From an uncultured Acidobacterium sp. (GTDB lineage Bacteria; Acidobacteriota; Vicinamibacteria; Vicinamibacterales; UBA2999): 64,000 nucleotides of DNA. The notes beneath the pieces are model-generated. The model had not been told where the DNA came from. It made no database searches and saw nothing but the letters and a program-made list of their open reading frames with translations. Of this stretch, positions 3,726 through 26,225 are shown in pieces. A program made the position numbers and the translations under genes. The stretch covers positions 2,390 through 66,389 of the forward strand of contig CAZEMI010000295.1 of the NCBI GenBank assembly GCA_964513235.1, in the 5' to 3' direction. Every line of letters begins with the position of its first letter. The stretch's first letter is position 1.

Positions 3726-3754
3726 CGAGCTTTGCACACTTCTGCATAGGACTT

Positions 3755-4601: not shown

Positions 4602-4669
4602 CAGCCGAGTCGCACCCCGCGATAAGCGGATTAGGACCGGGCTTGGAATGCACGGCCCGAAAGGCGGGA

Positions 4670-4715
4670 CATTCCCAAGGGGCGCCGGTCATCTGCCAGC
4701 CGCCCCCTGGGAATG
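4670..4715 (+). terminator. Imperfect hairpin downstream of the PIN gene
   Basis: cattcccaagggg ... cccctgggaatg, with one bulge and a 21-nt loop. There is no T-tract. Confidence 0.3.
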
Positions 4716-4849
4716 CTGTGGGCCCCTACTGACTCAGAGGCCCGAACTGCAGGACCACCTGTGGTGAGTTCTCTCCTTTCTCTCGACTGCAGAACTACTG
4801 CTCCTGTCCGCCGCCTTCCGCCGAGTTTTCCGGACGGTCGATGGAGGGT

Positions 4850-4881
4850 CCCGGCAGTGCCAGTCGTACGGCACTGCCGGG
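4850..4881 (-). terminator. Perfect 12-bp GC-rich hairpin just 3' of the giant gene
   Basis: cccggcagtgcc-agtcgtac-ggcactgccggg, 13 nt after the TAA stop (4895-4897, minus strand). The U-tract is weak. Confidence 0.5.
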
Positions 4882-4894
4882 AAGTCGGGGGGAG

Positions 4895-7800
4895 TTATTG
4901 CGGTCCGAAGGTAATCACGAGTTGCGGAGCGACGGCGCCTTCGCGGCTCGACAACGACTGCTCCGGACCCGCGGCGGCGCCTTCCGAGCCGTCGCGAATC
5001 AGGAAGCCGTGCGCCGCGTTCAGCGAGTACATCTCCTGGACCAGGGTGGTGACGGTCCATGCACGCAATCCGGTGCCCGACGCCGCCGACGGCGAGGTCG
5101 CCACCGTGCCAGCCGCGGCCGGCTGATTGCTCCAGGTCACGGCGTTCTCCGCCCACGCCGCGGCGACGCGCATCGCGCGCAGCGTGCGTCCGTTCACCGC
5201 GGACATTGACTCGACCCGCAGCGTCGCTGACTGCACGGCGCACCCCTGCGGCGCCTGCGGCAGCGAGAAGTTGATCAACGCGCGCGCGTTGGCGCTGCCG
5301 TTCTTCGACCGGACCTGCAAGGACGAGTCGTCACCCTTGTTCTGCGACGGGCTGCCCTGGTCGATCCACGCATCCGCTATCGCGCTCAGCGTCACCGGCG
5401 CGCCGCAGTTGATCGGCGCCACCGTCCACGAGGACGAGGCCGGCGATGCGTCGATGTTGCCGACCGCATCGATGGCCCGCACCGCGAAGGTGTGCTCGCC
5501 GAGCGACAGGTTCGAGTACGACGCCGGCGACGTGCACGCGCCATAGGCGCCGCCGTCGAGCGAGCACTCGAAGGTCGTGTCAGGCTCGTTGGTCTCGAAC
5601 GAGAACGTCGCGGAGGTCGCGATCGTGCTCGCCGTCGGTGCCGACGTGATGGTCGTGTCGGGCGCCGTCGTGTCGAGCGGCGCGATCGTCCAGGTGTAGC
5701 TGGCCGGCGTCTGGTCGACGTTGCCCGTCGCATCGATGGCGCGGACGGACCACGTGTGCGGGCCGTGGCTCAGGCTCGTGTAGCTGACCGTCTGCGCGCA
5801 CGGCGCGAACGGCGCGGCGTCGAGGCTGCACTCGAAGGTCGCACCCGGATCGTTCGAGGCGGCGGTGAACGTCGCGCTCGTCACGGTAGAGGTCGCCGGC
5901 GGCTGCTCGACGATGCCGGTGGTCGGCGGCGTGAGGTCGATCAGCCACTCGTAGTCGTCCGGCGTGGCGTCGGTCAATCCGGCCGATCCAGTCGCGCGGA
6001 CCCGCACCTCGTGGAGGCCTTCGGCCAACCCGGTGTAGGTGACCGGCGACGTGCACGGCGCGAACGTCCCGAAGTCGAGCGCGCATTCGAACGTCGACCC
6101 CGCTTCGCTGGCCTCGAAGGTGAGGGTGGCGCTGGTCGCGCCGGTCGCTTCGAGGATGATGCCACCGGGTCCGTCAAGCGGACCGGTGAGGATGACTGTC
6201 TCCGGCGGCACGCCAATCGTCCAAGTGGCGGAGGCTGGGGAGGCGTCCGTGTTACCCGCCGCATCTACGGCGCGGACCGCGAACGTGTGAGTCCCTCCCG
6301 CAAGCCCCGCCAGCGTGGACGGCGAGCTGCACGCAGCAAATGCTGCCGCGTTCAGCGCACACTCGAACGTGCTGTTGGCCTCGGTGGCCGTGAACGTGAA
6401 CGTCGCGTCAGTGGCGGTCGTCGTTCCCGACGGCGCCGACGTCATCGACGTCTCGGGGGCGATGGTGTCGGCCGCCGCCGAGATCGACCAGTCGTAAGTC
6501 GCTGCGGTCGCATCGGCGAAGCCTGCGGAATCGACCGCGCGCACCGCGAAGGTGTGGTTACCCGAACTCAGTCCGGTGAGCTGGACCGGCGAGCTGCACA
6601 CGGCGAACGCCGCGCCGTCGAGCGAGCACTGGAACGTCAGTGGCGCCGCGCCGTTGTCGGTCGCCGAGAACACGAACGTCGCGTCGGCGGTATCGCTGAT
6701 TGCGGCCGGACCGGCATCGATCACTGTTTCCGGCGCCTGCTCCACCGTGAAGGTGTGGCTGGCCGGCGTGCCGTCAACGTTGCCCGCCTCGTCGATGGCG
6801 CGCACCTCGAAGGTGTGCGTGCCGACCGCCAGGCCGGAGATCGCCTCAGGCGAGCCGCACAGTTCGAACATGGCGCCGTCGAGGCTGCACTCGTAGGTCA
6901 GCGCCTCGGCCGGCGATGTCGCGTCGCTGCCGCTGAACGTGAACGCGGCGTCGATCGCGAGCGAGACCAGCGCCGGACCTGAGACGATCGTCGTCTCAGG
7001 CGCGGTGGCGTCGGACACCACGGTCCAGGTGTAGTCGGCCGGCGTCGCGTCGGCGTTGAGCGACGCATCGGTGGCGCGGACGAGCAGGGTGTGCTCACCG
7101 AGCGCCAGCGCCGTGAGCTCGAGCGGCGACGCGCAGCCGCTGAACGCCGCGCCGTCGAGCGCGCACTCGAAATCGAGATCCGCCACCGGCGCGTTGTCGG
7201 TGCCGGTGAAGATGAAGCTCGCCGTCGTGGCCGTGCCCAGGGCGGCCGGACCCGAAACAATCTGCGTATCGGGCGCCGCAATGTCGAGGATCTCCCAGGC
7301 GTAAGTCGCCGCGATCGCCTCGACCAGGAGGTTGGCCTTGTCGGGCTGCACCTCGAAGCTGCGGGCGCCCGGCAGCAGGCCGATGTAGGTCACCGGCGAC
7401 GTGCAGAACTGCGGCGCCCCGCCATCGAGCGTGCACAGCGCCAGCGACGCCGGATCGTCGATCGTGAAGGCGAACGTCGCGGTCGTCAGCTCCGTCGACC
7501 CGGCCACGCCGAGTGCATCCGCCTCTCCAGCAGGGCCCGAGATGATCGTGACCACCGGCGGCGTCATGTCGCCGGTCTGCCAGCTGTAGCTGGCCGGCGA
7601 TTCATCGATGATGCCCGCCGCGTTGACCGCGCGGACGTCGAGCTGATGCTCGCCGTGCGGCAGGTCCGTGAACGTCACCGGCGAGGTGCACGCCACGAAC
7701 GGCTGCGCCAGGTCGAGCGAGCACTCGAACGTCACGTTCGCCTGCGTGGAGGCGAACGTAAAGGTTGCCTCCGTCGCCTCACTTTGCGCCGCCGGGCCGG

Positions 7801-10800
7801 ACGTCACGCTCGTTTCCGGCACGCCGCCGGCTGTGAACGAGATGGTGGCCTCCGTCGGATCGACGTGGCCTGCCGAGTCGAGAGCGCGCACTGCGAGGGT
7901 GTGCGTCCCCTCGGCGAGGTCGACGGTCTCCAGTTCATACGGCGTGCTGCAACCCTCGAACGCGCCGTTATCGATCGAGCATTCGTAGCTCAAGTCGAGC
8001 GGCGGCGTCAGGTCGTCGGTCCCCGTGAAGAGGAACTGGAGGATCGGGCTCTCCCCAGGCACCCCTGGCAGCGGCGTCATCGAGACGATCGTGGTCTCCG
8101 GCGGGAGGCCGACCTCCCACGTATAGACCGCGGGCGTCGGATCCACGGTGGACGCCGGTAACCCGTCGACCACGCCCAGGGTCACGAGCGCCTGGACCTC
8201 GAATTCATGCGGACCTTCGAGGAGCCCAACCACCACCCACGGCGAGGTGCAGGGCGTCGGGCCATCGCCGTCGAGGAAGCACTGGAACGTGGCGCTCGGT
8301 TCCGGACTGGAGAACGTAAAGGTCGCCGTGGCCGCTCCGCTTGGGCTCGCGGGACCCGACACGATCGCCGTGTCGGGCGCGCCGATAACCGTCCACGAGT
8401 AGCTGGCCGGCGAGGCGTCCGTATGGTTGCCCGCGTCAACGGCGCGGACCTGCAGGGTGTGCGCGCCCGGCGCGACGGTGAGGTCGTAGGGCGAATCGCA
8501 CGCCGAGAAGATTCCGCCGTCGAGCGCGCACTCAAACGTCGTGTTGAACTCCGTCGCGACGAAGACGAAGGTCGCCTGCGTCGCCGCGGTGGTGGCCGGC
8601 GGGCCCGCCACGATCACCGTATCCGGCGGCACCGTGTCGAGCGACGGATCGATGATCCAGGTGAAGACCTCGAGCATCGACTCGATGTTGCCGGCCGCGT
8701 CGATGGCCCGGACCTGGAAGATGTGGGTGCCGGCCGCCAGGCCGCTCACCGTGTAGGGCGACGTGCACGCAGCGAAGGCGAATCCATCGAGTGAGCATTC
8801 GAAGCGCACGCCCGGCTCGGGGACGCTGACCTCGAAGCTGAAGGTCGCCGTCGTCGCCTCCGTCTCACTCGGCGGCCCGGAGAGAATCGTTGTCTCCGGC
8901 GCGGTCACATCGAGGAACGTCCACGTGCGGGTAGCTGGCGTCGCGTCGGCGTTGCCCGCAAGGTCGACCGCGCGCACGGCCAGCGTGTGCTCGCCGGGCA
9001 GCTCGAGGTCGGTCAGCGCGGAGATCAAATCGAGCGTGTGCGGCGACGAGCACGACAGGAACGGCTCGCCGTCGAGCGAGCACTCGAAGGCCAGATCGAG
9101 CACCGGGGTCCGGTTGTCGGTTCCCGCGAACTCGAACAGCACGGTGACCGACGCGTTCACTCCCGACGGCCCCACGCTGATGACGGTCTCCGGAGCCGTT
9201 ACGTCAGGCGGGAGCGTCACCGTCCACGTGTGGACGGCCGGGGTCTGGTCGGCGAACCCGTAAGTGTTCGTCGCCTGGATCTCGAACTCCTGGGTGCCGT
9301 CGATCAGCCCGCGGGCCTCGAAGGGCGATACACAGGAAGCGAACGGCGCGCCGTTGAGCGAGCACTGGAACGTGGCCGGCTGATCCGAGCTGAACACGAA
9401 CGTCGCCGTGTCGCTGCCGCTGGGCGAAGCCGGCGCGACCAGGATCGTGGTCTCGGGTTCACTGACGACCGTCCAGGTATAGCTGACCGGCGCACCGGTG
9501 ACGAGGGCCTCGTTGACCGCGCGCACCTGGAACGTGTGTTCGCCAGGCAGCAGGTCGCCGTAGACGGCCGGCAAGTCGCAGGCCTCAAACGGCAGGCCGT
9601 CCAGCGAGCACTCAAAGGTCGCCAGCGGATCGGTAGCCGAGAAGCTGAACGCCGCGTCGGGACTCCCGGAAATGGCCGCCGGACCGGCCAGCAGCGTCGT
9701 CACCGGACCGGTCGTATCGAGCTGGATCGTCCAGGCGTAGCTGGCCGTCGGACCGACGTTGAGCGCCTCGTCGATGGCCCGCACCTGGAACTGGTGCGCG
9801 CCCTCCAGCAGGTCGTTGTACACGGCCGGCGACACGCACCCTTCGAACGCGCCGCCGTCGATCGCGCACTCGAACAACGTCGCGAGCGGATCGGCAGACG
9901 CGAAGGCGAAGATGGCGTCGGTGCTGGCCGTCACAGCGGCCGGACCCGACTGGATCGTCGTCGTCAGCGCGATGCCGGCGGCGTCGACCGTCCAGGTATA
10001 GGTAGCCGGCGTGGCGTCGACGACGCCCGCCGTGTCGACGGCGCGCACGCGGAACATGTGGCTGCCGACGGCGAGGTCGCTGTAGGACACCGGCGCGGTG
10101 CATGCGGCGAACGGCGCGGCGTCGAGGGCGCACTCAAAGGTCGCGGCCCGGTTCGACGACACGTTGAACGTCGCGCTCGTGCTGGTGGTGCTCAGCGTGG
10201 GACCCGACAGGATCTGCGTATCGAGCAGCGTCGTGTCGGCCAGGATCGTCCAGCCATACCGCGCCGGGGTCGGGTCGGCCGTCCCCGAGGCGTCGAGCGC
10301 CCGCACGTCGAACGTGTGCGTCCCGAGCGCCAGGCCGGCATACGACGCCGGCGATGTGCAGGCCGCGAAGGCCGCGCCATCGAGCGCGCACTCGAACGCC
10401 GTGCCGAGCACCGACTGGAGCTCGAACGTGGCGCTCGTGCTGGTCGTGGTCAGCGTCGGACCGGACAGGATGGCCGTGTCGAGAATGACCGTGCCTGGCT
10501 GCGTCTGGATCGTCCAGGTGTAGCTGGCAGGAGTCGGGTCCTCGTTGCCGAGCGCATCGGTGGCGATGACCTGGAAGGTGTGGAACCCATCCGACAACGC
10601 CTCGAGGCTCACCGGCGACGTGCACAGCGCGAAGCCGGCCCCGTCGAGCGCGCATTCGAACGTCGCGGGCGCCGCGGTCGCGGTGAACGTAAACGTCGCG
10701 CTCGTGGTGGCGGTGACGCTCGCCGGGCCCGAGGTGATCATCGTGTTGACCTGGTCGGCGACGCCGATGATCGTCCACGTGAAGCTGGCCGGCGTGGGAT

Positions 10801-13800: not shown

Positions 13801-16800
13801 CGAAGCGGCACTGATACGTCATCTCCCATGGCGCGTTGACGTCGTCGGTGCCCGTGAACGTGAGCGTTGCGTAGCGGCTGTTGCTCGGGTCGGCCGGATG
13901 CTCGACGATCGTCGTGTCGGGCTGTCCGGGGTGGGTAGTGGCCTCGCACACCACGGTGTAGCACTGCGCCGGCTCGAGATTGCCGGTGGCGCGGTTGCCG
14001 CCGCCGTCGATGTTGGCCACCTCGGCGAAGATCCCCCAGCCGCCGTTGCTGTCGGCCGTGTTCGCGGTGATGGTATGGACCGGCGCCGACACCTGAATGC
14101 CGTCACCGCCATTGCCGCTTGCCGTGTTGCGTTCGATCAGCGTCCCGGCGCCGGCCAGACCCGGAGCGCCGACGGCAATGCCGTCTCCGGTATTGCCGTT
14201 GGCCATGTTGCTGACCAGGACGTTGCTCGCGGAGTTTCCGTCGATGCTGACGCCGTTCCCGGTGGAGTTGCCGGCGATGTTCGACTCCAGCCGGTTGTTG
14301 GACGAATCGACCAGCGTGATGCCCGCCTGGTTGAAGCGCAGATCATTGCCACGCACCAGCGTGTTGTTGGCCTGCTCGAGGCTGACGCCGGCGCCGAGGT
14401 TCTGCTGAATCACGTTGACCGTCACCTGCACGCCATCGGACATGTAGATGTGCACGCCTGCGGCATTGCCCGTCAGCATGTTGCGGTCGATGACGTTGCC
14501 GTTCGAGGTATTCAGGATCTCGACGGCGACGCCCTGGTTGTTCGACACGGTGTTGCCCGTGACGATGTTGTCGCGGGCGAAGTCGAGAACGATGGCCAGG
14601 CCCGTCGAGTCGCTGATGCGGTTGTTCTCGAGCCGGTTGTTGTGTGATCCGGCGACACGGATTCCCTCCCCGAGCCCGGCGGTAATGGTGTTCCGCAGGA
14701 CGAGAGCGTTCTGCGTGCCGTCGAGCAGGGCGATGCCGGTGCCGTTTCCGAAGAGCGAATTGCCACGCACCGTCGCATCATCCGCATCCGACAGGAGGAT
14801 GCCGATCACCGACGTGGACGTCACCTGCAGCGCCGAGACGATGTTGCCGGTGGCGCTGCCGCTCAGGAACACGCCGGTCTCGAATTGCTGGACGCCGGTG
14901 GTGATCTCCGCCGGCACGGGCACCGTGTCGCGCACGCCGCCGCTGACGCTGCCGTCGGTGATCGTCACGTTGTCGAAGCCCGGATTGCGGATCCCGACGC
15001 CGGAGCCGACGCCGTCGACCAAATGGCCGTTGAGGTCCAGCGTGATGCCGTGCGCGCCGATGATCAGGCCGTCGGCCGGACAATCGATCAGGTCATTGAG
15101 CACCAGCGTGCTCTGCGTCAGCACCTGGCCGCAGCTCACCTGGGCCGGCACCGCCGGGATGCCAACGCTCCAGGCGTGGAGCGCGGGCGTCTCATCCGTC
15201 AGCCCCTCGAGATCGGTGGCCGCCACCGCGAACGTGTGCGGCCCCTCAGTCACGGAGTAGGACTGCGGCGACGCGCACGGCGCCAACGCGCTGCCGTCGA
15301 GCGCGCAGGCAAAGGTCGCGCCCGGCTCGTTGGACGTGAAGGTGAACGTCGCCGTGGTGTTGACGGTGCTCGGATCGGGTCCGGAGAGGATGGTCGTCTC
15401 CGGCGCCACGCCCGGCGGCGTAATCGCCCACGTGTAGGTGGCAGGCGTCGGATCGACGTTGCCCTGCTGATCGACAGCGCGCACCTCGAAGGTGTGCGTG
15501 CCCGCCGACAGCCCGGTGTAGGACTGCGGGCTCGTGCACGCCGCGAAGTCGGTGTCGAGCTGGCTGTCGAGACGGCACTGGTAGCTGAGGTCCGTCACGG
15601 GCGTCAGCGCGTCGAGCCCGCTGAAGGCAAAGCTCGCCTCGGTGGTGGTGGTCGGATTCGCGGGTCCGGCGCTGATCATCGTCTCGGGCGTGAGGACGTC
15701 GAGAAGCGCCGTGTTACCGCAGGCGATGTTGTAGCACTGCACCAGATGGCCCGTCGCCGGGTCCACCGGCCCACCGTCGTTGCCAAAGGCGTTGTTGCCG
15801 CCGCCATCGACGTTCCCCAACTCCACCCAGATGCCCCAGCCGAAGTTGTGATCCGCCGTGTTGGCCGTGATGGAGTGGCCGGTGCCGGGCACGTAGATGC
15901 CGTTGCCGGTATTGGAGTAGCTCTGATTGCGCTCGATCACGTTGCCGTTGCCGGCGGCCTGATCGAGAACCTGGATGCCGGACTCGCCGTTGCCGACGGC
16001 GCCGTTGCCAAACACCACGTTGCCGAGCGAGCCGGAGCCCAGCGAGATGCCGGCACCCATGGCGTCGACGGCCTCATTCCCCTCGATGCGGTTGTCGGTC
16101 GAGGCGGACAGCGCGATGCCGACCGAGCTGTAGCGGGTGAGATTGCCGCGCACGAGCGTGGCGGTGGCATTCTCGAGCGAGATACCGGCGCCCGAGACTT
16201 CGTCCACGGTGTTGCTGGTCACCTCGTTGCCCTGCGCCGCCGCTCCGCCGGGCACGCCGGCCACCACGATGCCGCCGGAGCCCGTCAGCACGATGTTGCC
16301 GGTGATGCGGTTGTTGTTCGCCGGATACACGATGACCGCGTCGATCGGATCGACCGTCGAATGCACGGCAATCGCTTCGCCGCTGTTAGCGGTCAGCAGG
16401 TTCGCCGAGACGGTGTTCTGGCTGACGCCCTCCAGGGCGATGCCGGCCCCGCCGGACGTGCTCACCTCGTTGCCGCTGATCGTGTTAGCGGCGCTCCGGC
16501 CTCCGACGTGGATACCGTCGCCACTCGCCGACCCCACGATGTTGCCGGACACGAGGGTGCCCTGCGTGCCGTTCAGCATCGCGATGCCGGTGCCGTTGGC
16601 CACCAGCACGTTGTCGCGGACCGTGTTGCCGTCGGCGTCCGACAGCTCGATGGCCGCCAGCTGGCTGCTAAAGATTCGGAGCGCCGAGACGATCGCGCCC
16701 GACGTGCCTGGCGTCAGCCGCACGCCGAAGTTGAACTCCTGGATCGTGCCGTTGCTGATCGTCACGTAGTCGTACCCTTGCGTGAGGATCCCGGTGCCCG

Positions 16801-19800
16801 ACGAGCCGCGGCCGTCGATCGTGAAGCCGTTGAGATCGACCGTGAGGCCGTCGGCCCCGATCACCAGCCCGTACTCCGGGCACTCGAGCAGATCGTTCTG
16901 CAGGATGACGCTGGTCAGCAGCACCTCGCCGCACGTGACGGTCGCAGCCACTGGCGGCGCGCTGACCTGCCATGTAGCCATCGCCGGCGTCGGATCGAGG
17001 TTGCCCGCGGCGTCGACGGCGCGCACCGCAAAGGTGTGCTGTCCGGGCGCGAGACCGCTGATGGTATGCGGCGAGGTGCAGGACGTCAGCGCGCCGCCGT
17101 CGAGGGAGCACAGGAACATGCTGCCGCTCTCGCTGGACGTGAAGCTGAACGTCGCCGCCGTCGACACCGTGACGGGATCCGGCCGCGCCGTGATGGTCGT
17201 CTCCGGCGCGGTGACGTCGGGCGCACCAAGGACGATGGTCCAGGTGTAGCTGGCCGGCGTCCCGTCGACGTTGCCGCCGAGGTCGAGCGCGCGCACCTGC
17301 ACCGTGTGGGTGCCAATCGACAGGCCGGTATAGGTCACCGGGTTGGTGCACGCCGTAAACGCGCCATCGTCGATACGGCATTCGTACTCCAGTTGATACC
17401 CGGGTGACTCGTTGTCCGACCCGGCGAACGTAATCGTCGCCGTCGTGCTCGAGGTGCCGTCGACCGGGCCGTTCGTGATGACGGTGTCGGGCGGCGCCGT
17501 GTCGAAGACGCCTGGCGTCGTCGGTGACACGGTCCAGGTGTAGGTCGCCGGCTCCCAGTCCACGTTGTGGGCGGGATCCTCGGCGCGCACCTGGAAGGTG
17601 TGCGTCCCGGCGCTCAAACCCTCGAACGCCAACGGACTGACACACGAGACCCAGCCTTCGCTCGGCGGCGGCGACGGCGGCTCGTTCGGATCCTGCGGCG
17701 GCGCCGGCGGATCCGCCGGGGCATCGAGGCGGCACGAGAAGTTCAGCGCCGTCAGCGGCGCGTAGTTGTCGATGCCGGTGAACTCGAATAGCTGCGGCGC
17801 GAGCGTGCTCGCCCCATTCGGCGGCGCGACGGTGATGAAGGTGTCGGGCCGGCCGAGATCGGGTGCGATGAGCGGCACGATCGCCGTGGTCTCGCACACC
17901 ACGCCCAGGCACTGCTCGAGATCCTGGTTGTTGCCGCTGGCACGGTTGCCGCCGCCGTCGATGCTCCCTTCCGCGCTGATGCCGTATAGCGCGTTGTTAT
18001 GGGCGTCGTTGGCCGTCACCGTGTGGCCGAGGCCCTGCACCGAGATGCCCACGCTGAGGTTCTGGTTGGACGTGTTGCCCTCGAGCAGGACGCCCGGGAC
18101 CGGGGTGCCGTTGGCGTCCAGCACCTCGCTCTCGATGGTGATGCCGTCGCCGCCCGTCACGTTCGCGACGTTGCGCAACGCACGGAGGCCGGTGGCGCCG
18201 CCGCCGAACTCGAACCCGCTCTGCGACGAGTGGGTGGCGTCGTTGGCCTCGATCAGGTTGTTGCTCCCGCCGCCCACGGTGACGCCGCTCGGGTTCCACC
18301 GCACGTCGTTGCCGCGCACCAGCGTGTCACGGGACGCCGCCACGTTAATGCCGGAGTCGGACGACCGATGGACGATGTTGTTGATGACATGGTTGCCGTT
18401 CGAATCCTGGATGTAGACGCCCGCGTCGCCGGCGTGGCTCATGGCGTTGCCGTCGATCAGGTTGTTGTGCGACCCGAGCGTCAGGTAGAAGCCGGCGTCG
18501 CCGGTGTGGAACACGCTGTTGCCGCGGAACAGGTTGTTGCGCGAGCCCTCGACGCGGAAGCCGCCGTCGCTGTCGCTCAGCAGCGGATTGGACGTGTAGC
18601 CCGAGATGTGGTTGGACTCGATGCGGTGGCCGCTGACATCCGACATGTACATCGCGAAGCCCGAGTTGCCCTCGAATCGGTTCCTGTAGACCGCGCTGCC
18701 TTCGGATCCGAGCCGCAGACCAAGGGCGTCGGCGTTGCCGACGAAGTAGTTGTCGCGAATCTCGTTGCCAATCCGGCCGTTGTCGGCGTTCACCAGATCG
18801 ACGCCGGCGATGGAATTGCGCGCCAGCGTCAGGAATTCGAGCACGTTGTAGGTGGTGCCGGCCGTCAGGTGGACGCCGGTCCCGAACTCCTGCACCGTGC
18901 CGTTGGTGATCACGACATTCGTGAACCCGCTGTTGCGGATGCCGGCGGGCAGGCCTTCCTCTTGCCCCGCATACACCGCGCCGGGCGGCAGCGGCTGCCC
19001 TGGCACGGGCGCCATGTAGTTGAGGCCGTCGATGGTGTGGCCGCCGAGGTCGAGCATGATGTTCGACGCGCCGATGACAAGACCCTCGGCCGGGCAGTCA
19101 ATCAGGTCGTTGCCGACCAGCGTGCTCTCGGTGATCGTCTGGCCGCAGGCGACGGTCGTCGGCACCGTCGGCGCCGCGGGTCGCGGCGGCGCCGGCGCAT
19201 TGGGATCGGTCGGCGCAAACCGCAGTTGCAGCTGCGGCCCCTGTGGACTGTCGGCAATGGTGTCCTTGGAGCTGAAGACCTGCTCCGCACCTTGCGGGTC
19301 GTTTTCCGCCGCGTCGCGCATGAGGAACCCGTAATTCGGCATGCCGCCGCTGAGCATCGCCGCCACGGCCGCCGTGACGTCCCACTCCTGGAACATCGCG
19401 CCGGAACCCGACGGCTGCCCGTCGTCTCGCGGGCCGACGTTGAACGTCGGGGGCTGGGTGTTCCAGGTCACCTGGTTCTCCTGCCACGGCGCGGCAATCG
19501 GCCTGGCTACGATCAGCCGTCCTTCGGTGCCGCCCTGCGCAAAAAGGCGCAGCGTCGCGGACTGGAGCGCGCACTGCGGCAGATCGGTGGGCAGCTCGAA
19601 GTACACCAGGGCTCGGGCATTGGTCCCACCCGCCTCGGAGCCCTCGGATCGGACGGTCAGGCCGAGATCGATCCCGTAGTTGACAAACGCTTCAAACTCG
19701 TCGACCCACGTGTCGGCGGCCGCCGGCAGCGTCAGGTTGGCGTCTTCGCATGTCGTCGCAGTGAGGATCGTCCAGGTGTAGCGCGCCGGCGACGGATCGA

Positions 19801-22657
19801 TATTGTCGCCGCCATCGAGCGCGCGGACCTCGAACGTGTGCGTCCCGGTGGCCAGGTCGGAGAAAATCGCCGGGTTCGCGCACTCGCCGATCAGCCCCCA
19901 GTCCTGGCCGTCGATGCGGCATTCGAACTCGATCAGGTTGGCCGCCGTCAGATTGTCGGTCCCGGTGAACGTGAAGGCGGCGCCGCGGCTGCTCGTCACC
20001 GGCGGCGGAGCGGAGAGAATCGTCGTGTCGGGAGGAACCGTGTCGGCCGCGTCCACCCAGGTGTGCGAGGCCGGTGTCGGATCGACGTTACCGGCCCGAT
20101 CGATCGCGCGTACCAGCAACTGGTTGCTGCCCGAGGACAGTTGGTACTTGACCGACCCTACGATCTTCCCATCGGGGTCGATAATCCACGGCGAGGCGCA
20201 GCTCACCCAATCGAGCAGCGGGTCCGGAGTCTGCGTCAGCGGCGGCGGCGGCGCGGTGGGGTCAACCGGCTCCGGCGGCTCGAGCGGATCGAAGTTGATG
20301 ATCCGGCACTGGAACAGGAACTCGCCGGGGGCGCTGGCGTTGTCGAGGCCCGCAAACTCGAAGACGCCGCCGCCGTCGGTGGTGGTCGGCGCCGACACGA
20401 TGATCGTGTCCGGGGGCGTCGTGTCCGGCGGCAGCGGCACGCCGTCGAACTCGTACGCGCCGACGTCGCAGGCCAGGTTCTTCGGTCGCGTCACGCCGCG
20501 CTGGTCGGTCAGCAGGCACGGCGACAGGGCCGCGTCGACAGAGATGCTGGCGGCGGTCAACGCATGGGTCATCGTGGGGCCGCCGTTGTCGGCCAGGGCC
20601 AGCACCGTCGCCAGCACGTTGACGTTGGTCCGGTCCTTGGGGCCGACGAAGCCGCACCGGGTGCCGCCGTCGTGGTTGCCGCCCTCGGTGGTGAACGGCA
20701 CGACGCAGTCGTCGCTGCCCACGTTGCCGGCGACCAGCGAGTTCTGGAACCGCACGCCCTTGTGAGGCGCCAGCGCGGTCGCCAGCGTGATGCCCAGTTC
20801 TTCGGTCGGAATGCCCATGCCGGCGCCGCTTGGGGCGGCATTGCGGGTGATGGTGACATGGACCAGGTGGAGGCCGGCGTCGGCGTCGACGTACACGCCA
20901 CCGCCCGCCTGGGCGGCGAGGTTTCCGGACAGCGTCGTGTTCTGAACCTCGAACGCACCGTCGCTGCCGTGATAGATGCCGGCGCCCCGTCCGCATTCCT
21001 TGAGCTCGTGTTCCGGCAGGCAGATCGCGCGGTTGTCCCAGAACGTCGTGCCGGAGATGCGCATGGTGCTGTCGGCGACGATGTTGAGGCCGCCGGCGTT
21101 GGTGGCGGTGTTGGAAAGGATGTTCGAGTCGATGATGGCGAACTCGCCGCTGCTGCCGTTCTCGATGCCGCCGCCGTCGAGCGTGGCGGTGTTGTTGCGG
21201 ATCGTGACCCGCTCGAGATCCACGCGCATGCCGCTGTTCCACACGCCGCCGCCCCCACGCTGCGTCGTGTTGTCGCGCACGACGGTGTCGGCGATCCGAA
21301 CGATGCCAAAGGAATGGATCGAGATGCCGCCGCCATCGCCGTAGCCGTTGTTCCCGGCGATGGTCGAATCGGTTATCGTCACGGTTCCTGGACCGTCGAA
21401 CACCAGGCAGCCGCCGCCCTCGTCCGCCGGCTCGAGCAGCTCGCCGTCCGGCAGGATTGGCGTATCGCGGGGGATGGGCGTGCCGTCTGGTCCGGGTACG
21501 AATTCCGTTCCGGGCCGAACACCGCCGGCGCCATTTCCCGTACACATCATCTGGTCGATCACCACCGGCCGATCGCTCTCGGAGGCGAAGGCGCCGCCCT
21601 CGCCGCCGGCCAGGTTGTCGGTGAACGTGCCGCGGACGATCGAGGCGGTCGCCTTGGTCCCGACCTTGACACCGCCGCCGCCGGCCACGGCGATGTTATG
21701 CGTCACCAAGGCGTCGGTCAGCGTGAGCACGCCCTCCATCTCGTTGGCGACACCGCCACCGGCGGCGCCCGATTGGTTGCCGGTGATCGTGGCGTAGGTG
21801 ATCGTCGCGCGGCTCTGCTGCCCCGCCAGGTTTCGCTCGCCGGCGTTGTAGACGCCGCCACCGCCGCCGGCCGCATGGTTGCCCGAGATCGTGACGCCGG
21901 CGTCCGCCGTGCCGCTCACCGTCAACTGGCCGCGGGTGACGTAGACGCCGCCGCCCATGGCCCCGCTCGAGTTGTCCTGGATCGCCGAGCGCTCGATGAT
22001 GAGGCTGCCGCCCTCGTTGCCGTCCGCGTACAGGCCGCCGCCATTGCCGGTGGCGACGTTATTCAGGACGGCCACGTCGATCAACCGCACGGCGCCGCGG
22101 GAGACGCTGGCAATCGCGCCGCCGTCACCGGGGGCCCACCCGTTTCGCAGGGTCAGGCTCGAGAACGTCACGGCGCCGGCCGTCCCGTGGATCTCGAACA
22201 GCCGATCGACCGCCGTCTGCTCGACGGCGCCGAACGGCGCCGTCCCGCCGTCGATGATCGTCGCCCGCCCGGGCGCGCCGGTGATCGTCAGCGGCGCGGT
22301 GATGTCGAGATCACCGACCGTGATGTCGTTCTCGTTCGTCGGCACGCGCATCAGCGCGAACACGCCGGGCGGCATCTGGATGACGTCGGCCTCGATCGTC
22401 GTGTTCGCCTCCTGGATCGCCGCGCGCAGCGAGCACGTGCCGGCATTGGTCCGGCACACGCCGTCGCCCGGAAAGGCGTCGACACGATCGATCGGATCGT
22501 TGACCACGAAGGTCGAGGCCGAGAACAGCCGTACCTCTCCCATGACGGTGAGCAGCGCCGCGATGGCGACGCCGCCCGCCAACGCAAACGCTGCGTGTCG
22601 CGGGAAGAGACGAGACAGGACTGATCTGACACGGCCGTGGAGGGGGAGCTTCCTCAT
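4895..22657 (-). CDS. Giant secreted/cell-surface protein (5,920 aa): N-terminal anchor/signal, CSLREA-type motif, Gly-rich beta-helix, 2 DNRLRE-like modules, 3 PbH1/NosD-like beta-helices, 38 Ig-like repeats
   Basis: - A single uninterrupted 17.76-kb ORF.
- Hydrophobic N-terminus (AFALAGGVAIAALLTVMG).
- GTCSLRAAIQEAN motif.
- GGGGV/GGGI turn repeats ending ..DQRGVTRP..CDVGAYEF.
- Repeated modules read directly from the translation. Confidence 0.92.
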   Translation of the reverse strand: MRKLPLHGRVRSVLSRLFPRHAAFALAGGVAIAALLTVMGEVRLFSASTFVVNDPIDRVDAFPGDGVCRTNAGTCSLRAAIQEANTTIEADVIQMPPGVFALMRVPTNENDITVGDLDITAPLTITGAPGRATIIDGGTAPFGAVEQTAVDRLFEIHGTAGAVTFSSLTLRNGWAPGDGGAIASVSRGAVRLIDVAVLNNVATGNGGGLYADGNEGGSLIIERSAIQDNSSGAMGGGVYVTRGQLTVSGTADAGVTISGNHAAGGGGGVYNAGERNLAGQQSRATITYATITGNQSGAAGGGVANEMEGVLTLTDALVTHNIAVAGGGGVKVGTKATASIVRGTFTDNLAGGEGGAFASESDRPVVIDQMMCTGNGAGGVRPGTEFVPGPDGTPIPRDTPILPDGELLEPADEGGGCLVFDGPGTVTITDSTIAGNNGYGDGGGISIHSFGIVRIADTVVRDNTTQRGGGGVWNSGMRVDLERVTIRNNTATLDGGGIENGSSGEFAIIDSNILSNTATNAGGLNIVADSTMRISGTTFWDNRAICLPEHELKECGRGAGIYHGSDGAFEVQNTTLSGNLAAQAGGGVYVDADAGLHLVHVTITRNAAPSGAGMGIPTEELGITLATALAPHKGVRFQNSLVAGNVGSDDCVVPFTTEGGNHDGGTRCGFVGPKDRTNVNVLATVLALADNGGPTMTHALTAASISVDAALSPCLLTDQRGVTRPKNLACDVGAYEFDGVPLPPDTTPPDTIIVSAPTTTDGGGVFEFAGLDNASAPGEFLFQCRIINFDPLEPPEPVDPTAPPPPLTQTPDPLLDWVSCASPWIIDPDGKIVGSVKYQLSSGSNQLLVRAIDRAGNVDPTPASHTWVDAADTVPPDTTILSAPPPVTSSRGAAFTFTGTDNLTAANLIEFECRIDGQDWGLIGECANPAIFSDLATGTHTFEVRALDGGDNIDPSPARYTWTILTATTCEDANLTLPAAADTWVDEFEAFVNYGIDLGLTVRSEGSEAGGTNARALVYFELPTDLPQCALQSATLRLFAQGGTEGRLIVARPIAAPWQENQVTWNTQPPTFNVGPRDDGQPSGSGAMFQEWDVTAAVAAMLSGGMPNYGFLMRDAAENDPQGAEQVFSSKDTIADSPQGPQLQLRFAPTDPNAPAPPRPAAPTVPTTVACGQTITESTLVGNDLIDCPAEGLVIGASNIMLDLGGHTIDGLNYMAPVPGQPLPPGAVYAGQEEGLPAGIRNSGFTNVVITNGTVQEFGTGVHLTAGTTYNVLEFLTLARNSIAGVDLVNADNGRIGNEIRDNYFVGNADALGLRLGSEGSAVYRNRFEGNSGFAMYMSDVSGHRIESNHISGYTSNPLLSDSDGGFRVEGSRNNLFRGNSVFHTGDAGFYLTLGSHNNLIDGNAMSHAGDAGVYIQDSNGNHVINNIVHRSSDSGINVAASRDTLVRGNDVRWNPSGVTVGGGSNNLIEANDATHSSQSGFEFGGGATGLRALRNVANVTGGDGITIESEVLDANGTPVPGVLLEGNTSNQNLSVGISVQGLGHTVTANDAHNNALYGISAEGSIDGGGNRASGNNQDLEQCLGVVCETTAIVPLIAPDLGRPDTFITVAPPNGASTLAPQLFEFTGIDNYAPLTALNFSCRLDAPADPPAPPQDPNEPPSPPPSEGWVSCVSPLAFEGLSAGTHTFQVRAEDPAHNVDWEPATYTWTVSPTTPGVFDTAPPDTVITNGPVDGTSSTTATITFAGSDNESPGYQLEYECRIDDGAFTACTNPVTYTGLSIGTHTVQVRALDLGGNVDGTPASYTWTIVLGAPDVTAPETTITARPDPVTVSTAATFSFTSSESGSMFLCSLDGGALTSCTSPHTISGLAPGQHTFAVRAVDAAGNLDPTPAMATWQVSAPPVAATVTCGEVLLTSVILQNDLLECPEYGLVIGADGLTVDLNGFTIDGRGSSGTGILTQGYDYVTISNGTIQEFNFGVRLTPGTSGAIVSALRIFSSQLAAIELSDADGNTVRDNVLVANGTGIAMLNGTQGTLVSGNIVGSASGDGIHVGGRSAANTISGNEVSTSGGAGIALEGVSQNTVSANLLTANSGEAIAVHSTVDPIDAVIVYPANNNRITGNIVLTGSGGIVVAGVPGGAAAQGNEVTSNTVDEVSGAGISLENATATLVRGNLTRYSSVGIALSASTDNRIEGNEAVDAMGAGISLGSGSLGNVVFGNGAVGNGESGIQVLDQAAGNGNVIERNQSYSNTGNGIYVPGTGHSITANTADHNFGWGIWVELGNVDGGGNNAFGNDGGPVDPATGHLVQCYNIACGNTALLDVLTPETMISAGPANPTTTTEASFAFSGLDALTPVTDLSYQCRLDSQLDTDFAACTSPQSYTGLSAGTHTFEVRAVDQQGNVDPTPATYTWAITPPGVAPETTILSGPDPSTVNTTATFTFTSNEPGATFACALDGSALAPCASPQSYSVTEGPHTFAVAATDLEGLTDETPALHAWSVGIPAVPAQVSCGQVLTQSTLVLNDLIDCPADGLIIGAHGITLDLNGHLVDGVGSGVGIRNPGFDNVTITDGSVSGGVRDTVPVPAEITTGVQQFETGVFLSGSATGNIVSALQVTSTSVIGILLSDADDATVRGNSLFGNGTGIALLDGTQNALVLRNTITAGLGEGIRVAGSHNNRLENNRISDSTGLAIVLDFARDNIVTGNTVSNNQGVAVEILNTSNGNVIDRNMLTGNAAGVHIYMSDGVQVTVNVIQQNLGAGVSLEQANNTLVRGNDLRFNQAGITLVDSSNNRLESNIAGNSTGNGVSIDGNSASNVLVSNMANGNTGDGIAVGAPGLAGAGTLIERNTASGNGGDGIQVSAPVHTITANTADSNGGWGIFAEVANIDGGGNRATGNLEPAQCYTVVCEATTHPGQPDTTIVEHPADPSNSRYATLTFTGTDDVNAPWEMTYQCRFDSTDPAAWETQVCENPTIFSNLSEGSHTFEVRAIDVQGNIDPTPASYTWTIALLPSGVAPDTTIISGPGVVSPLFEATFIFSANEPDVTFQCSIDGGSFAPCGFLDPSLPPSSTAGALFQFLEHEIGPHVFQVRAIDLEGNVDPTPATYEWSILGIWTTITSGPAYIAPTDPAEFPTGGETDSPVAMFTFTASVPGATFECSIDLQPFLPCVSGVTYTGLGPGAHLFRIIATDANGNTSVEPIEYGWDVVPSLDTAPPETIMTVVPVNNTSDVMFQFTGTDNMTPTVRLLYECRLDSTLNTAWVSCISPFNLFEAFPLIAPGQHTFEVRAIDEGLGGTGTQTPTDNIDPTPATHTWTYAADTTAPETAIVTGPPASGTLDATVEFTFAGNDGNATPALLLTFECAVDGAAFAPCASPLSVTVAGVGTHTLQVRAVDQALNADPTPATYPWILFVAPVAVIESAPAPTTADATATFTFSADQAGASFGCSIDGGPFVTCTSPATYLDLVAGPHVFAVRAADAAGNAGEPVSYQWMVEGTDVTAPDTIITTGPTLVTGSSRATFVFSATEPNATFQCALDGAIPNTCIAPLNYQDLVTGTHTFTVYAVDWSGNPDPTPASYTWTIAGPGAAPETTIDLGPLDLGPTQLGALENTTSTTAAFSFSSDTAGATFACIIGILNPVTQLVEFGQWTPCSSPHLYVGLLPGTYEFQVRATSPAGITDPTPADYNWDIVSPDLAAPRTSLDNGPAALTELADATFEFSAFDGVTGEPEPLATFECSLDGAPFAECFSPATYTGLAVGSHTFAVRATDALGNVDATPESYTWFVDALSGPPDTIILSGPPAVTASSEAAFTFSSNSTEVTFECTLDGGAPESCGAAVLGPNGTPLYYTEELGSLQPGPHTLEVRAIHTTLGPDTTPATYSWTMDPAERIAPNTTIVSRPAALTVASSAEFAFVADEAATFECSLDGLPYAGCSSPVEYVQLSEGAHTFQVRAIDQVLNVDPTPASFTWTIIGVADQVNTMITSGPASVTATTSATFTFTATAAPATFECALDGAGFALCTSPVSLEALSDGFHTFQVIATDALGNEDPTPASYTWTIQTQPGTVILDTAILSGPTLTTTSTSATFELQSVLGTAFECALDGAAFAACTSPASYAGLALGTHTFDVRALDASGTADPTPARYGWTILADTTLLDTQILSGPTLSTTSTSATFNVSSNRAATFECALDAAPFAACTAPVSYSDLAVGSHMFRVRAVDTAGVVDATPATYTWTVDAAGIALTTTIQSGPAAVTASTDAIFAFASADPLATLFECAIDGGAFEGCVSPAVYNDLLEGAHQFQVRAIDEALNVGPTASYAWTIQLDTTGPVTTLLAGPAAISGSPDAAFSFSATDPLATFECSLDGLPFEACDLPAVYGDLLPGEHTFQVRAVNEALVTGAPVSYTWTVVSEPETTILVAPASPSGSDTATFVFSSDQPATFQCSLNGAPFASCVSPFEARGLIDGTQEFEIQATNTYGFADQTPAVHTWTVTLPPDVTAPETVISVGPSGVNASVTVLFEFAGTDNRTPVLDLAFECSLDGEPFLSCSSPHTLDLISALTDLELPGEHTLAVRAVDLAGNADATPATRTWTFLDVTAPETTILSGPPSETEATTATFSFEVSVPEPGVRFECSLDGFAFAACTSPYTVSGLAAGTHIFQVRAIDAAGNIESMLEVFTWIIDPSLDTVPPDTVIVAGPPATTAATQATFVFVATEFNTTFECALDGGIFSACDSPYDLTVAPGAHTLQVRAVDAGNHTDASPASYSWTVIGAPDTAIVSGPASPSGAATATFTFSSPEPSATFQCFLDGDGPTPCTSPWVVVGLLEGPHEFEVQALVTLGVVDGLPASTVDPTPAVYTWEVGLPPETTIVSMTPLPGVPGESPILQFLFTGTDDLTPPLDLSYECSIDNGAFEGCSTPYELETVDLAEGTHTLAVRALDSAGHVDPTEATISFTAGGVPETSVTSGPAAQSEATEATFTFASTQANVTFECSLDLAQPFVACTSPVTFTDLPHGEHQLDVRAVNAAGIIDESPASYSWQTGDMTPPVVTIISGPAGEADALGVAGSTELTTATFAFTIDDPASLALCTLDGGAPQFCTSPVTYIGLLPGARSFEVQPDKANLLVEAIAATYAWEILDIAAPDTQIVSGPAALGTATTASFIFTGTDNAPVADLDFECALDGAAFSGCASPLELTALALGEHTLLVRATDASLNADATPADYTWTVVSDATAPETTIVSGPALVSLAIDAAFTFSGSDATSPAEALTYECSLDGAMFELCGSPEAISGLAVGTHTFEVRAIDEAGNVDGTPASHTFTVEQAPETVIDAGPAAISDTADATFVFSATDNGAAPLTFQCSLDGAAFAVCSSPVQLTGLSSGNHTFAVRAVDSAGFADATAATYDWSISAAADTIAPETSMTSAPSGTTTATDATFTFTATEANSTFECALNAAAFAACSSPSTLAGLAGGTHTFAVRAVDAAGNTDASPASATWTIGVPPETVILTGPLDGPGGIILEATGATSATLTFEASEAGSTFECALDFGTFAPCTSPVTYTGLAEGLHEVRVRATGSAGLTDATPDDYEWLIDLTPPTTGIVEQPPATSTVTSATFTAASNDPGATFECSLDAAPFAPCAQTVSYTSLSHGPHTWSVRAIDATGNVDQTPASYTWTIAPLDTTAPDTTITSAPTASTIATSATFSFETNEPDTTFECSLDGGAYGACTSPASYSNLSLGEHTFAVRAIDAVGNIDASPASSSWTVAPINCGAPVTLSAIADAWIDQGSPSQNKGDDSSLQVRSKNGSANARALINFSLPQAPQGCAVQSATLRVESMSAVNGRTLRAMRVAAAWAENAVTWSNQPAAAGTVATSPSAASGTGLRAWTVTTLVQEMYSLNAAHGFLIRDGSEGAAAGPEQSLSSREGAVAPQLVITFGPQ
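4898..5410 (-). other. C-terminal DNRLRE-like (CBM-like beta-sandwich) module of the giant protein
   Basis: NCGAPVTLSAIADAWIDQGSPSQNKGDDSSLQVRS..ARALINFSLP..CAVQSATLRV....WAENAVTWSNQP. The same pattern recurs five more times in this window. The family name is from memory. Confidence 0.55.
5411..13940 (-). repeat. 31 consecutive ~81-100-aa Ig-like repeats (consensus PDTTIxSGP..T..TxATFTFxxxExxxTFECxLDGxxFxxCxSPxxYxxLxxGxHTFxVRAxDxAGNxDxTPAxYxWTV)
   Basis: I counted repeat by repeat in the translation. Two Cys are conserved per repeat. Seven more copies lie further N-terminal in the same protein. Confidence 0.85.
13950..19160 (-). other. Three PbH1/NosD-like parallel beta-helix modules (about 17880-19160, 15700-16960, 13950-15160) alternating with 3 and 2 Ig-like repeats
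   Basis: Each module opens with a ..CGQ/E.(I/L)..S..L.NDL(I/L)(D/E)CP..GL(V/I)IGA..I.LDL.GH.(I/V)DG.. type motif. It continues with about 22-aa N/G-rich helix turns and closes with ..(I/V)DGGGN.A.GN. Confidence 0.6.
19215..19760 (-). other. Internal DNRLRE-like module of the giant protein
   Basis: TTCEDANLTLPAAADTWVDEFEAFVNYG...ARALVYFELP..CALQSATLRLFA...WQENQVTWNTQP. Confidence 0.55.
20450..22480 (-). other. CSLREA-type motif plus Gly-rich (choice-of-anchor-Q-like) beta-helix region
   Basis: CSLRAAIQEAN is followed by about 25 turns carrying GGG(G)(V/I/L) motifs, and the region ends NGGPTMTHAL...DQRGVTRP..CDVGAYEF. Confidence 0.55.
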
Positions 22658-22752
22658 CGTGCGCCTCGTGATGTTCGATCTGGCGGGACGCGGTGCTTGG
22701 CGACAGCGCGTCCCGGCGTTAGGCTGAACCGAATTCTTTGTCCATGTCTCGG

Positions 22753-22778
22753 AAACGCTGCGACGTCAGAAAGCGAAC
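22753..22778 (-). promoter_or_regulatory. GTTCGY-N14-GCGTTT motif, site b
   Basis: GTTCGCtttctgacgtcgcaGCGTTT on the minus strand; 95 nt upstream of the giant-gene ATG (22657). Confidence 0.45.
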
Positions 22779-22866
22779 GATCGACGCGCGTTTTTTGCTT
22801 GCGTTGTGTGGAGTGGAGGTCGCGCGGCGAGCGATGCGCGATGCGAGCAGACGCCTGCGTCCCGTG

Positions 22867-22892
22867 AAACGCCGAACCCGTTGAAAGCGAAC
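22867..22892 (-). promoter_or_regulatory. GTTCGY-N14-GCGTTT motif, site c
   Basis: GTTCGCtttcaacgggttcgGCGTTT on the minus strand. Confidence 0.4.
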
Positions 22893-23029
22893 GATCGCGC
22901 GATCGACGACGCGGCGCGGCTGCGTCGGGTGATCAACGCGATCGCGGTGTCACGTGTCGTCGTGTGGTGTGGTTGACGGAATCGCGCTGCGGCGGCAGCG
23001 CGGTGCGGGCAGACGCCCGCATCGCGTGT

Positions 23030-23055
23030 AAACGCCGGCGGCGATGAAAGCGAAC
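23030..23055 (-). promoter_or_regulatory. GTTCGY-N14-GCGTTT motif, site d
   Basis: GTTCGCtttcatcgccgccgGCGTTT on the minus strand. Confidence 0.4.
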
Positions 23056-23236: not shown

Positions 23237-23247
23237 GCGACCGGCGG

Positions 23248-26210: not shown

Positions 26211-26225
26211 GCGGGAATTTCCGCC

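Follow-up and report, generated by a model that had tools for sequence, protein, structure and literature searches.

We analyzed a window of 64,000 nucleotides from an uncultured Acidobacterium sp. (GenBank assembly GCA_964513235.1, contig CAZEMI010000295.1), in which a single open reading frame (ORF) on the minus strand, 4895..22657, codes for a protein of 5,920 amino acids (aa), hereinafter the giant protein. With moderate confidence, we interpret it as a real Sec-exported modular protein of ~600 kDa that forms an extracytoplasmic, disulfide-stabilized, glycan-tethered fiber serving as an adhesin or a matrix scaffold. Its domain types are known, and it belongs to an existing family of which it is the member with the longest array; what is new is the strict architecture of that family across phyla, the disulfide-based stalk, the immunoglobulin (Ig)-CBM96 cassette shared by proteins of an exopolysaccharide island and the move into a host that has an outer membrane. 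An annotation made earlier from the nucleotide sequence without database searches (hereinafter the original prediction) had missed the conserved family, the 55-kb island and two neighboring genes built of the same modules.

Integrity and modular organization of the giant protein

The frame runs through 5,920 codons without interruption from an ATG start, which is preceded by a GAGG Shine-Dalgarno-like element 6 nt upstream, bearing out the single ORF of the original prediction; an identical 5,920-aa protein occurs in the representative protein library (entry P0303). Each of the modules named earlier was recovered in the same order by Pfam or NCBIfam hidden Markov models (HMMs; Table 1), with the CSLREA-like motif falling below threshold (TIGR04214 at aa 71-85, 20.2 bits versus a cutoff of 25, with only model positions 13-27 aligned and the motif present as CSLRAA). 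The remainder of the N-terminal head, the coils of which measure 26-29 aa, scores 50 bits with Beta_helix and 36 bits with Chlam_PMP, and choice_anchor_Q (NF041518, 65.4 bits versus a cutoff of 25) matches aa 687-737. The hydrophobic N-terminal stretch, previously described as an anchor or signal, is a cleavable-type Sec signal peptide, which upholds the signal and does away with the anchor. All 102 Cys residues of the protein fall into 51 local pairs, with one in each Ig-like repeat and each DNRLRE module, two in each NosD-like helix and five in the head; the pairing previously noted for the repeats is there and extends to the whole protein.

The composition is acidic, with 625 Asp+Glu versus 170 Lys+Arg. 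A halophile explanation for the paucity of Lys and the low isoelectric point (pI) was considered and rejected, as the trait is one of the whole family in high-GC hosts. Three antisense ORFs of up to 1,886 aa (8987-14647, 14885-17407 and 17999-22624, plus strand) were treated as high-GC by-products and not as genes, since such frames are expected in repetitive coding sequence of 68% GC and these have no family support.

The Ig-like repeats form an extended, Cys-paired array

An HMM derived from the repeats delineates exactly 38 Ig-like units in a 2+3+2+31 pattern, with two Cys in every unit. The units of the giant protein show pairwise identities of 23-58% (median 41%), near but slightly lower than the 40-60% estimated previously, and are 60-80% identical at the DNA level; Tandem Repeats Finder reported no array on the gene, which has no long exact repeat. 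This divergence in both protein and DNA supports the earlier view that the array is old and not an artifact of identical units, and the DNA identities combined with the null result of Tandem Repeats Finder make the collapse or mis-assembly of identical units unlikely.

The AlphaFold model of two consecutive repeats, for which the alignment consisted of 30 internal repeat pairs, has a mean predicted local distance difference test (pLDDT) score of 97.8, and each repeat in it is a seven-strand β-sandwich. Among solved structures, the model comes closest to the tandem Ig/FN3-like stalks of SiiE, GhpA, MpIBP, RbmA and the lambda tail-tip protein J (with 2YN3, 5IRB and 9FLW among the matches), and a search of PDB sequences with the repeat profile gave marginal Ig matches only. 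The two Cys, spaced as C-x9-C in most units, are both present in 790 of the 791 full-length repeats from the giant protein and 51 relatives. Among 2,418 repeats from 145 other proteins, 2,345 have both Cys, 71 have neither and just 2 have one, such that a both-or-neither pattern holds in 3,206/3,209 repeats overall. This covariation bears the signature of a disulfide, the S-S geometry of which we infer, and together with the repeat-pair model it lends support to the original prediction of an extracytoplasmic Ig-like stalk stabilized by a disulfide between the two Cys of each repeat.

Of the curated models, just the OmpL47-type (as in the Leptospira surface protein OmpL47), Big_13 and Y_Y_Y give any match on the repeats. 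The OmpL47-type model NF047446 scores 83-181 bits (cutoff 40) when summed over many repeats, with single repeats attaining at most ~23 bits; at E<=1e-3 it recognizes 14/38 single repeats and Big_13 recognizes 2/38, none of them at the curated cutoff. The repeat profile finds 43,289 representative proteins (9,418 at E<=1e-30), some with 41-47 repeats, indicating that the repeat type is common and that 38 copies are no record. Thus abundant, the repeat is yet thinly covered by Pfam and NCBIfam.

A conserved family with a rigid architecture

Searching with aa 1-3000 of the giant protein, we recovered more than 20 proteins of 2,400-5,200 aa that cover 99-100% of this region at 43-47% identity. The family numbers more than 50 orthologs in all, and the search of related genomes proposed with the original prediction thus uncovers a conserved family. 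The annotations of its members go no further than 'right-handed parallel beta-helix repeat', 'CSLREA' or 'DNRLRE' protein, with JGI naming some of them 'CSLREA domain-containing'. Module HMMs show the order NT-2-DNR-PBH-3-PBH-2-PBH (N-terminal head, DNRLRE module and parallel β-helices, with numerals for Ig-like repeats) to be common to most full-length orthologs, and the complete order NT-2-DNR-PBH-3-PBH-2-PBH-N-DNR recurs in more than 25 of them at 43-50% identity. The C-terminal array comprises ~7-24 repeats followed by DNRLRE in the orthologs (24 in the otherwise identical P0305) and 31 in the giant protein, which is the longest uninterrupted array found in the family. Some orthologs carry a further helix or DNRLRE inside the C-terminal part, and a shorter form has two internal helices. 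The giant protein is not the largest member (P0306, 6,225 aa). Two orthologs from JGI contigs, P0014 and P0026, run into overlapping downstream ORFs of 1,541 and 2,384 aa, which look like frameshift-split continuations and, if joined, would bring the true lengths to ~6,300-6,750 aa. Canonical signal peptides are present in all full-length orthologs, where 2-5 residues separate an AxA-type site from the conserved start of the mature protein (TF.VNS..D..D...GDG.C....G.C[ST]LRAAI), and nearly all orthologs end with DNRLRE, without a sorting signal.

A scan of one genome per species (185,579 species) located 54 loci, all from Actinomycetota or Chloroflexota bar one weak archaeal match, and the named hosts of orthologs are likewise confined to these two phyla. 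A neighbor-joining tree built on the conserved core interleaves the two phyla and sets the giant protein apart on a deep branch with 46-50% identity to all others. Protein searches and 241 million metagenome records yielded no relative closer than ~50% identity; one genome locus, L055, shows a best segment of 62%. A metagenome scan with the C-terminal DNRLRE module gave no close relative and a single 29% match.

The gene neighborhoods of the orthologs show recurrent themes. A two-component system is encoded directly upstream in five of the six loci with a visible upstream flank (L001, L003 and L005 of Actinomycetota, the P0014 locus, and L002, where a small unannotated ORF intervenes) and two genes away in L004; it is of the OmpR type in Actinomycetota and of the NarL/GerE type in Anaerolineae-like contigs. 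The Anaerolineae loci have two subtilases flanking the ortholog, one of them a subtilase-NosD-CBM96 protein, and also contain a CHAT-TPR protein; in L061, too, the ortholog has a subtilase at its flank. The Jiangella ortholog lies between a 1,385-aa glycosyltransferase of family GT2 with DUF5719 and manB/pgi/manA. The two-component systems and subtilases point to dedicated regulation and to a recurrent partnership with CBM96-bearing subtilases.

Candidate glycan-binding modules and the question of catalysis

The internal and C-terminal DNRLRE modules of the giant protein score 80.0 and 92.4 bits with NF033679 (cutoff 34) and 77.7 and 101.6 bits with the CBM96 model PF24517 (cutoff 26), and the DNRLRE profile matches PDB 8WAB at E 3e-13. 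The one characterized CBM96, TM6-N4 of Dp0100 (PDB 7VBO), binds alginate via a basic groove in which Lys27 and Arg36 are central (PMC9971899). The profile alignment of the giant protein to 7VBO is weak (E 0.04); in it, both DNRLRE modules have Arg at each of these positions, the second being invariant. TM6-N4 is an accessory to a PL39 alginate lyase, whereas the giant protein has no recognized catalytic domain of a carbohydrate-active enzyme and has a Cys pair in each DNRLRE module.

The three internal helices are strongly matched by Beta_helix (PF13229, 118-248 bits) and NosD (PF05048, 79-217 bits), above cutoff. NosD itself is a periplasmic β-helix protein of NosDFY-dependent N2O-reductase maturation; by contrast, the helices of the giant protein reach just 27-113 bits with the NosD subfamily model TIGR04247 (cutoff 300), are embedded in 5,920 aa and have no nosZ/F/Y context, with no nos genes in the window. 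The AlphaFold model of helix 1 (pLDDT 91.3, predicted TM score 0.88) is a right-handed parallel β-helix with all-β coils, and the nearest structures by Foldseek are the A-modules of AlgE4/AlgE6, AlgG, GH87 glucanase, the Klebsiella K1 capsule lyase, PL6 lyases and phage tailspikes. With TM scores of 0.2-0.5 and identities of 12-17%, this fold match to carbohydrate-active enzymes is generic, and searches of PDB sequences with helix 1 and with the N-terminal head found no relative. The top matches, AlgE4/AlgE6 and AlgG, are extracellular or periplasmic β-helix enzymes acting on polyuronates; the similarity amounts to TM scores of 0.24-0.47 and 12-14% identity, and the giant protein differs from them in having no DPHD/YGxDPH motif, R-modules or type I secretion system (T1SS) signal.

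An alternative hinted at in the original prediction, which we regard as doubtful although not slight, is a displayed multi-enzyme in which at least one NosD-like helix is an active lyase, hydrolase or epimerase acting on exopolysaccharide, with CBM96 for targeting and the Ig-like repeats as a stalk, on the model of the Methanosarcina disaggregatase or the AlgE epimerases. Along with the fold of helix 1, it would be consistent with the location of the gene next to an exopolysaccharide cluster and with the known occurrence of DNRLRE modules in alginate, hyaluronate and pectate lyases and in archaeal disaggregatase or S-layer-type proteins (PMC9971899; PMC12369344). Further, charged residues that are specific to the family and recur at intervals of one coil form a row in helix 1 alone (R1295, E1319, D1364, D1384, D1387, R1408, D1411 and D1420), which is kept in 37-41 of 41 orthologs. 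However, four conserved polar residues of this helix are replaced in the giant protein (D1290 by N, D1384 by H, R1408 by H and D1420 by N), helices 2 and 3 are almost devoid of position-specific polar residues, and no epimerase motif of the YG(F/I)DPH(D/E) type was seen in the sequence. When 111 helix modules of 41 proteins are aligned, conservation of >=95% is confined to an Asn ladder, glycines, the Cys pair of the N-terminal cap and a C-terminal Q-C-x4-C cap, all of which are, as judged from the alignment, structural and not catalytic. Given these conserved columns and the restriction of the charged row to helix 1, the originally proposed three catalytic-looking helices, for which no common catalytic motif was found, are unsupported; the groove of helix 1 stands out as one possibly functional site. 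On balance, we favor a glycan-tethered fiber over a multi-enzyme.

An accessory island with paralogs and an exopolysaccharide cluster

The giant gene lies in a ~55.0-kb segment (Table 1) that is absent from a related Vicinamibacterales-type contig of 1.6 Mb (L062). The latter has the contiguous order PreA, NCS1, aldehyde dehydrogenase, a 90-aa ORF, ADOP, a 300-aa ORF and PTPS, followed by a TonB-dependent receptor; by blastn the window is colinear with it on both sides at 75-83% identity, with positions 3218-58190 having no counterpart and the aldehyde dehydrogenase and ADOP genes being neighbors in L062. The genes on the flanks are not of actinobacterial type. The flanking aldehyde dehydrogenase (58874-60340) is 87-93% identical to proteins that derive, where named, from metagenome-assembled genomes (MAGs) of Vicinamibacterales or Acidobacteria, and the gene at 700-3198 codes for a duplicated permease of the ADOP family (858 bits versus a cutoff of 622). 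The clusters of the aldehyde dehydrogenase, NCS1 permease, PreA and, at the opposite end of the window, PTPS have 110-633 members at >=90% identity, and those of the aldehyde dehydrogenase and PreA include named Vicinamibacterales. The flanking genes and the gap in L062 together place the giant gene in an accessory island of an outer-membrane-bearing soil acidobacterium. A 495,937-bp MAG contig labeled 'Cyanobacteria bacterium' at NCBI has an aldehyde dehydrogenase and PreA (P0139/P0485) >=90% identical to the Vicinamibacterales-type proteins and is probably mis-binned or mislabeled. At the borders of the island there is no tRNA gene, no direct or inverted flanking repeat longer than 10 nt and no anomaly in GC or in GC at third codon positions (GC3), which, with the deep branch of the giant protein, makes it less likely that the island came recently from a donor among the sampled organisms.

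Two further genes of the island, p963 and p2117, code for proteins ending in an Ig-DNRLRE cassette ~50% identical to the C-terminus of the giant protein, and together the three genes place six DNRLRE modules within 33 kb. The homologs of p963 are named solely from Actinomycetota and Chloroflexota. A lipoprotein signal in p963 (an LTAC string) was rejected, as the Cys stands before the hydrophobic core. The Ser/Thr kinase and the extracytoplasmic function (ECF) sigma factor encoded between p963 and p2117 occupy the role that upstream two-component systems have in the orthologs. Three exact copies of ATCGTTCGCTTTC lie upstream of the giant gene, two of them alike over ~60 nt, and with one single-mismatch copy elsewhere they compare with an expectation of 0.07. 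The three upstream copies may function as operators or promoters, perhaps ones recognized by the ECF sigma factor encoded nearby. A scan for terminator and promoter consensus sequences downstream of the giant gene found no match.

In the exopolysaccharide cluster, the Wza-like exporter (56047-56862, minus strand; 271 aa) is short and EpsE/EpsY-like, scores below all equivalog cutoffs and is of a type that may depend on a further protein in the outer membrane. No family match was obtained for two neighboring ORFs of the cluster (40472-43376, minus strand; 454 and 512 aa).

Table 1. Modules of the giant protein and other features of the window
Feature	Coordinates	Strand	Remarks
Accessory island, ~55.0 kb	3218..58190	.	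Absent from related 1.6-Mb contig L062
Whole giant ORF	4895..22657	-	5,920 aa, 605 kDa, pI ~4.05, 13 Lys, 102 Cys
C-terminal DNRLRE/CBM96 module, aa 5751-5920	4898..5407	-	Cys pair 5751/5806; proposed glycan-binding tether
Uninterrupted 31-unit two-Cys Ig-like array, R8-R38, aa 2906-5750	5408..13942	-	Repeat HMM
NosD-like PbH1 module 3, aa 2503-2905	13943..15151	-	HMM
Ig-like repeats R6-R7, aa 2317-2502	15152..15709	-	Repeat HMM
NosD-like PbH1 module 2, aa 1903-2316	15710..16951	-	HMM
Ig-like repeats R3-R5, aa 1597-1902	16952..17869	-	Repeat HMM
NosD-like PbH1 β-helix module 1, aa 1165-1596	17870..19165	-	Cap Cys pairs 1171/1188 and 1583/1588
Internal DNRLRE/CBM96 module, aa 969-1150	19208..19753	-	Cys pair 970/1029
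Ig-like repeats R1-R2, aa 742-968	19754..20434	-	Repeat HMM
N-terminal head, aa 49-741	20435..22513	-	CSLREA-like motif C68-x6-C75; Gly-rich PMP-like parallel β-helix
Choice-of-anchor-Q domain, aa 687-737	20447-20599	-	End of N-terminal head
Signal peptide, Sec-type, aa 1-48	22514..22657	-	Basic n-region, 19-aa hydrophobic core, SAS/TF cleavage-type site (cut between S and T)
Three direct copies of ATCGTTCGCTTTC-N10-GCGTTT	22769..23058	-	Candidate regulatory repeats; upstream region of the giant gene (590 bp)
p963, upstream paralog	23248..26139	-	Signal peptide, DNRLRE, NosD-like helix, 2 Ig, DNRLRE
Ser/Thr kinase with TolB-like propeller	26551-29601	-	Island gene
ECF sigma factor	29531-30148	-	Island gene
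p2117	31082..37435	+	Signal peptide, Ig, subtilase S8, P-domain, TIG, 3 Ig, 2 DNRLRE
Exopolysaccharide cluster	37490..56862	-	Wzy-like, GT4 initiating transferase, GT9, several GT1, Wzx, Wzc-like tyrosine kinase, short Wza/EpsE-like exporter

Export and the outer-membrane question

The PEP-CTERM, LPXTG, type IX secretion system (T9SS) C-terminal domain, autotransporter barrel and RTX models gave no match on the giant protein at E<=0.01, confirming by HMM search what had been read from the translation. In particular, neither the T9SS sorting domain (TIGR04183 / PF18962) nor HemolysinCabind (RTX) is found, a Sec leader being present instead; there is no C-terminal β-barrel translocator, two-partner secretion domain or partner gene in the giant gene or its neighbors; and the C-terminus (...LVITFGPQ) has no hydrophobic tail. 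Weak PorU matches (<=31 bits versus 420) fall on Ig-like repeats.

Actinomycetota and, by most accounts, Chloroflexota do not have a classical lipopolysaccharide outer membrane. On that basis, Sec and signal peptidase should be sufficient for export in the hosts of the orthologs. The export route, left open by the original prediction, would therefore pose no difficulty in those hosts, and is a real puzzle here because the host acidobacterium has an outer membrane.

A further alternative is that the gene was acquired horizontally from a family evolved for cells without an outer membrane and is non-functional or mislocalised here, its product being trapped in the periplasm, poorly expressed or decaying. 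In line with this, the named hosts of orthologs are exclusively Actinomycetota or Chloroflexota, the gene sits in a 55-kb insertion between Vicinamibacterales-type genes, the related genome has a TonB-dependent receptor, no signal for secretion across the outer membrane was found, and several conserved residues of helix 1 are substituted. Nevertheless, the 17.8-kb ORF is free of stops and its 51 Cys pairs and structural residues are intact, which bespeaks continuing purifying selection, and its terminal array, the longest in the family, indicates expansion and not decay. Moreover, its GC and GC3 match those of the host, its deep separate branch speaks against a recent import, and the island contains outer-membrane-type exopolysaccharide export genes (Wza/Wzc), suggesting that the island is adapted to an outer-membrane-bearing cell. 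We accordingly judge this explanation unlikely. The weakest alternative, an assembly artifact in which a collapsed, expanded or chimeric repeat region mimics a single gene, could appeal to the metagenome-type source contig (68,653 bp) and to the lack of an independent close copy confirming the repeat number, but is scarcely credible given the divergence of the units described above, a frame that stays open across 38 different units, a module order agreeing with dozens of independently assembled orthologs (complete genomes included) and flanks colinear on both sides with a related genome.

Proposed mechanism

Returning to the interpretation as a disulfide-stabilized, glycan-tethered fiber, we propose that the signal peptide would lead the unfolded chain through Sec and be cut near residue 48, and that folding of the modules would go along with oxidation of the 51 local Cys pairs. 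The Ig-DNRLRE(CBM96) cassette at the C-terminus might then bind an acidic polysaccharide, most plausibly the Wzx/Wzy/Wzc/Wza product of the same island, and thereby hold the giant protein in the capsule or matrix. An Ig domain generally spans ~4 nm. At this figure, the 31-repeat array could act as a spacer on the order of 100 nm (roughly 120 nm), and the conserved N-terminal ~2,900 aa, with four β-helices and the second CBM96, could constitute a distal binding head in which helix 1 would be the only candidate for a glycan-modifying activity.

The ORF, its domain order and signal peptide, the Cys covariation, the conservation of the family, the island and the paralogs were observed directly, whereas the location, glycan ligand, orientation and role are deductions from them. 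Several points weigh against this proposal. The polysaccharide ligand of the CBM96 modules is putative, the alignment to the characterized member is weak, and the sole pointer to the supposed orientation, with a tethered C-terminus and a distal N-terminus, is the cassette shared with the two neighbors. There is no T1SS, type V secretion system (T5SS) or T9SS signal, no secretion-system gene is visible in the window, and with no evident route across the outer membrane the giant protein could stay in the periplasm. The orthologs of Actinomycetota are not beside comparable exopolysaccharide clusters, the glycosyltransferase and manB/pgi/manA genes at the Jiangella locus notwithstanding. Finally, literature searches found no experiment on any member of the family.

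Relationship to known systems

The closest analogs in overall organization are giant adhesins of Gram-negative bacteria, namely SiiE, MpIBP, the LapA-type RTX adhesins and the GhpA grappling hook, which likewise consist of a long tandem Ig extender with ligand-binding modules at the ends. These proteins use a T1SS (C-terminal RTX and no Sec leader) or a T9SS, and their Ig domains are Ca2+-stabilized and free of Cys; in contrast, the giant protein has a Sec leader, one predicted disulfide per repeat, no RTX or C-terminal sorting domain, and β-helices within the stalk. The Methanosarcina disaggregatase and its kin share secretion and the combination of PbH1 and DNRLRE, and act on the extracellular polysaccharide of their own cell (PMC9971899; PMC12369344), but are archaeal, much smaller and without an Ig stalk. 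The Disaggr_repeat and Disaggr_assoc models have no match in the giant protein, and ortholog P0004 bears a precomputed PF06848 flag only. The head resembles chlamydial Pmp-like, choice-of-anchor-Q and CSLREA proteins in its GGxG[VI] PMP-type coils, choice_anchor_Q domain and CSLRAA motif; however, Pmps are autotransporters with a C-terminal barrel and choice-of-anchor proteins usually end in a sorting signal, neither of which is found in the giant protein.

Implications

Giant repeat proteins are common, but the rigid complex architecture of this family across at least three phyla is unusual. The family represents a second design of the bacterial long stalk, combining Sec export with one disulfide per Ig domain, as against the T1SS and Ca2+-rigidified domains of the known adhesins. 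A bolder form of the proposal, which we advance only as an improbable conjecture, is that an anchorless, Sec-dependent family of ~400-650-kDa disulfide-rich fibers evolved in bacteria without an outer membrane, and that an acidobacterium possessing one acquired a member together with an exopolysaccharide island. If this were true and the protein reached the surface, a folded 600-kDa protein with 51 disulfides would cross the outer membrane without a T1SS, T5SS or T9SS, and the Ig-DNRLRE cassette on three co-inherited proteins would be a common address tag that docks a small secretome onto the polysaccharide of the island.

In any case, the copy in an outer-membrane-bearing host poses a concrete secretion question, and the island, with its three Ig-CBM96-ended proteins, regulators and exopolysaccharide cluster, offers a testable model of protein-decorated polysaccharide matrices in soil bacteria. 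The culturable hosts among the orthologs (Jiangella, Kribbella, Humibacillus, Phytohabitans and Pseudonocardia) make the family experimentally accessible.

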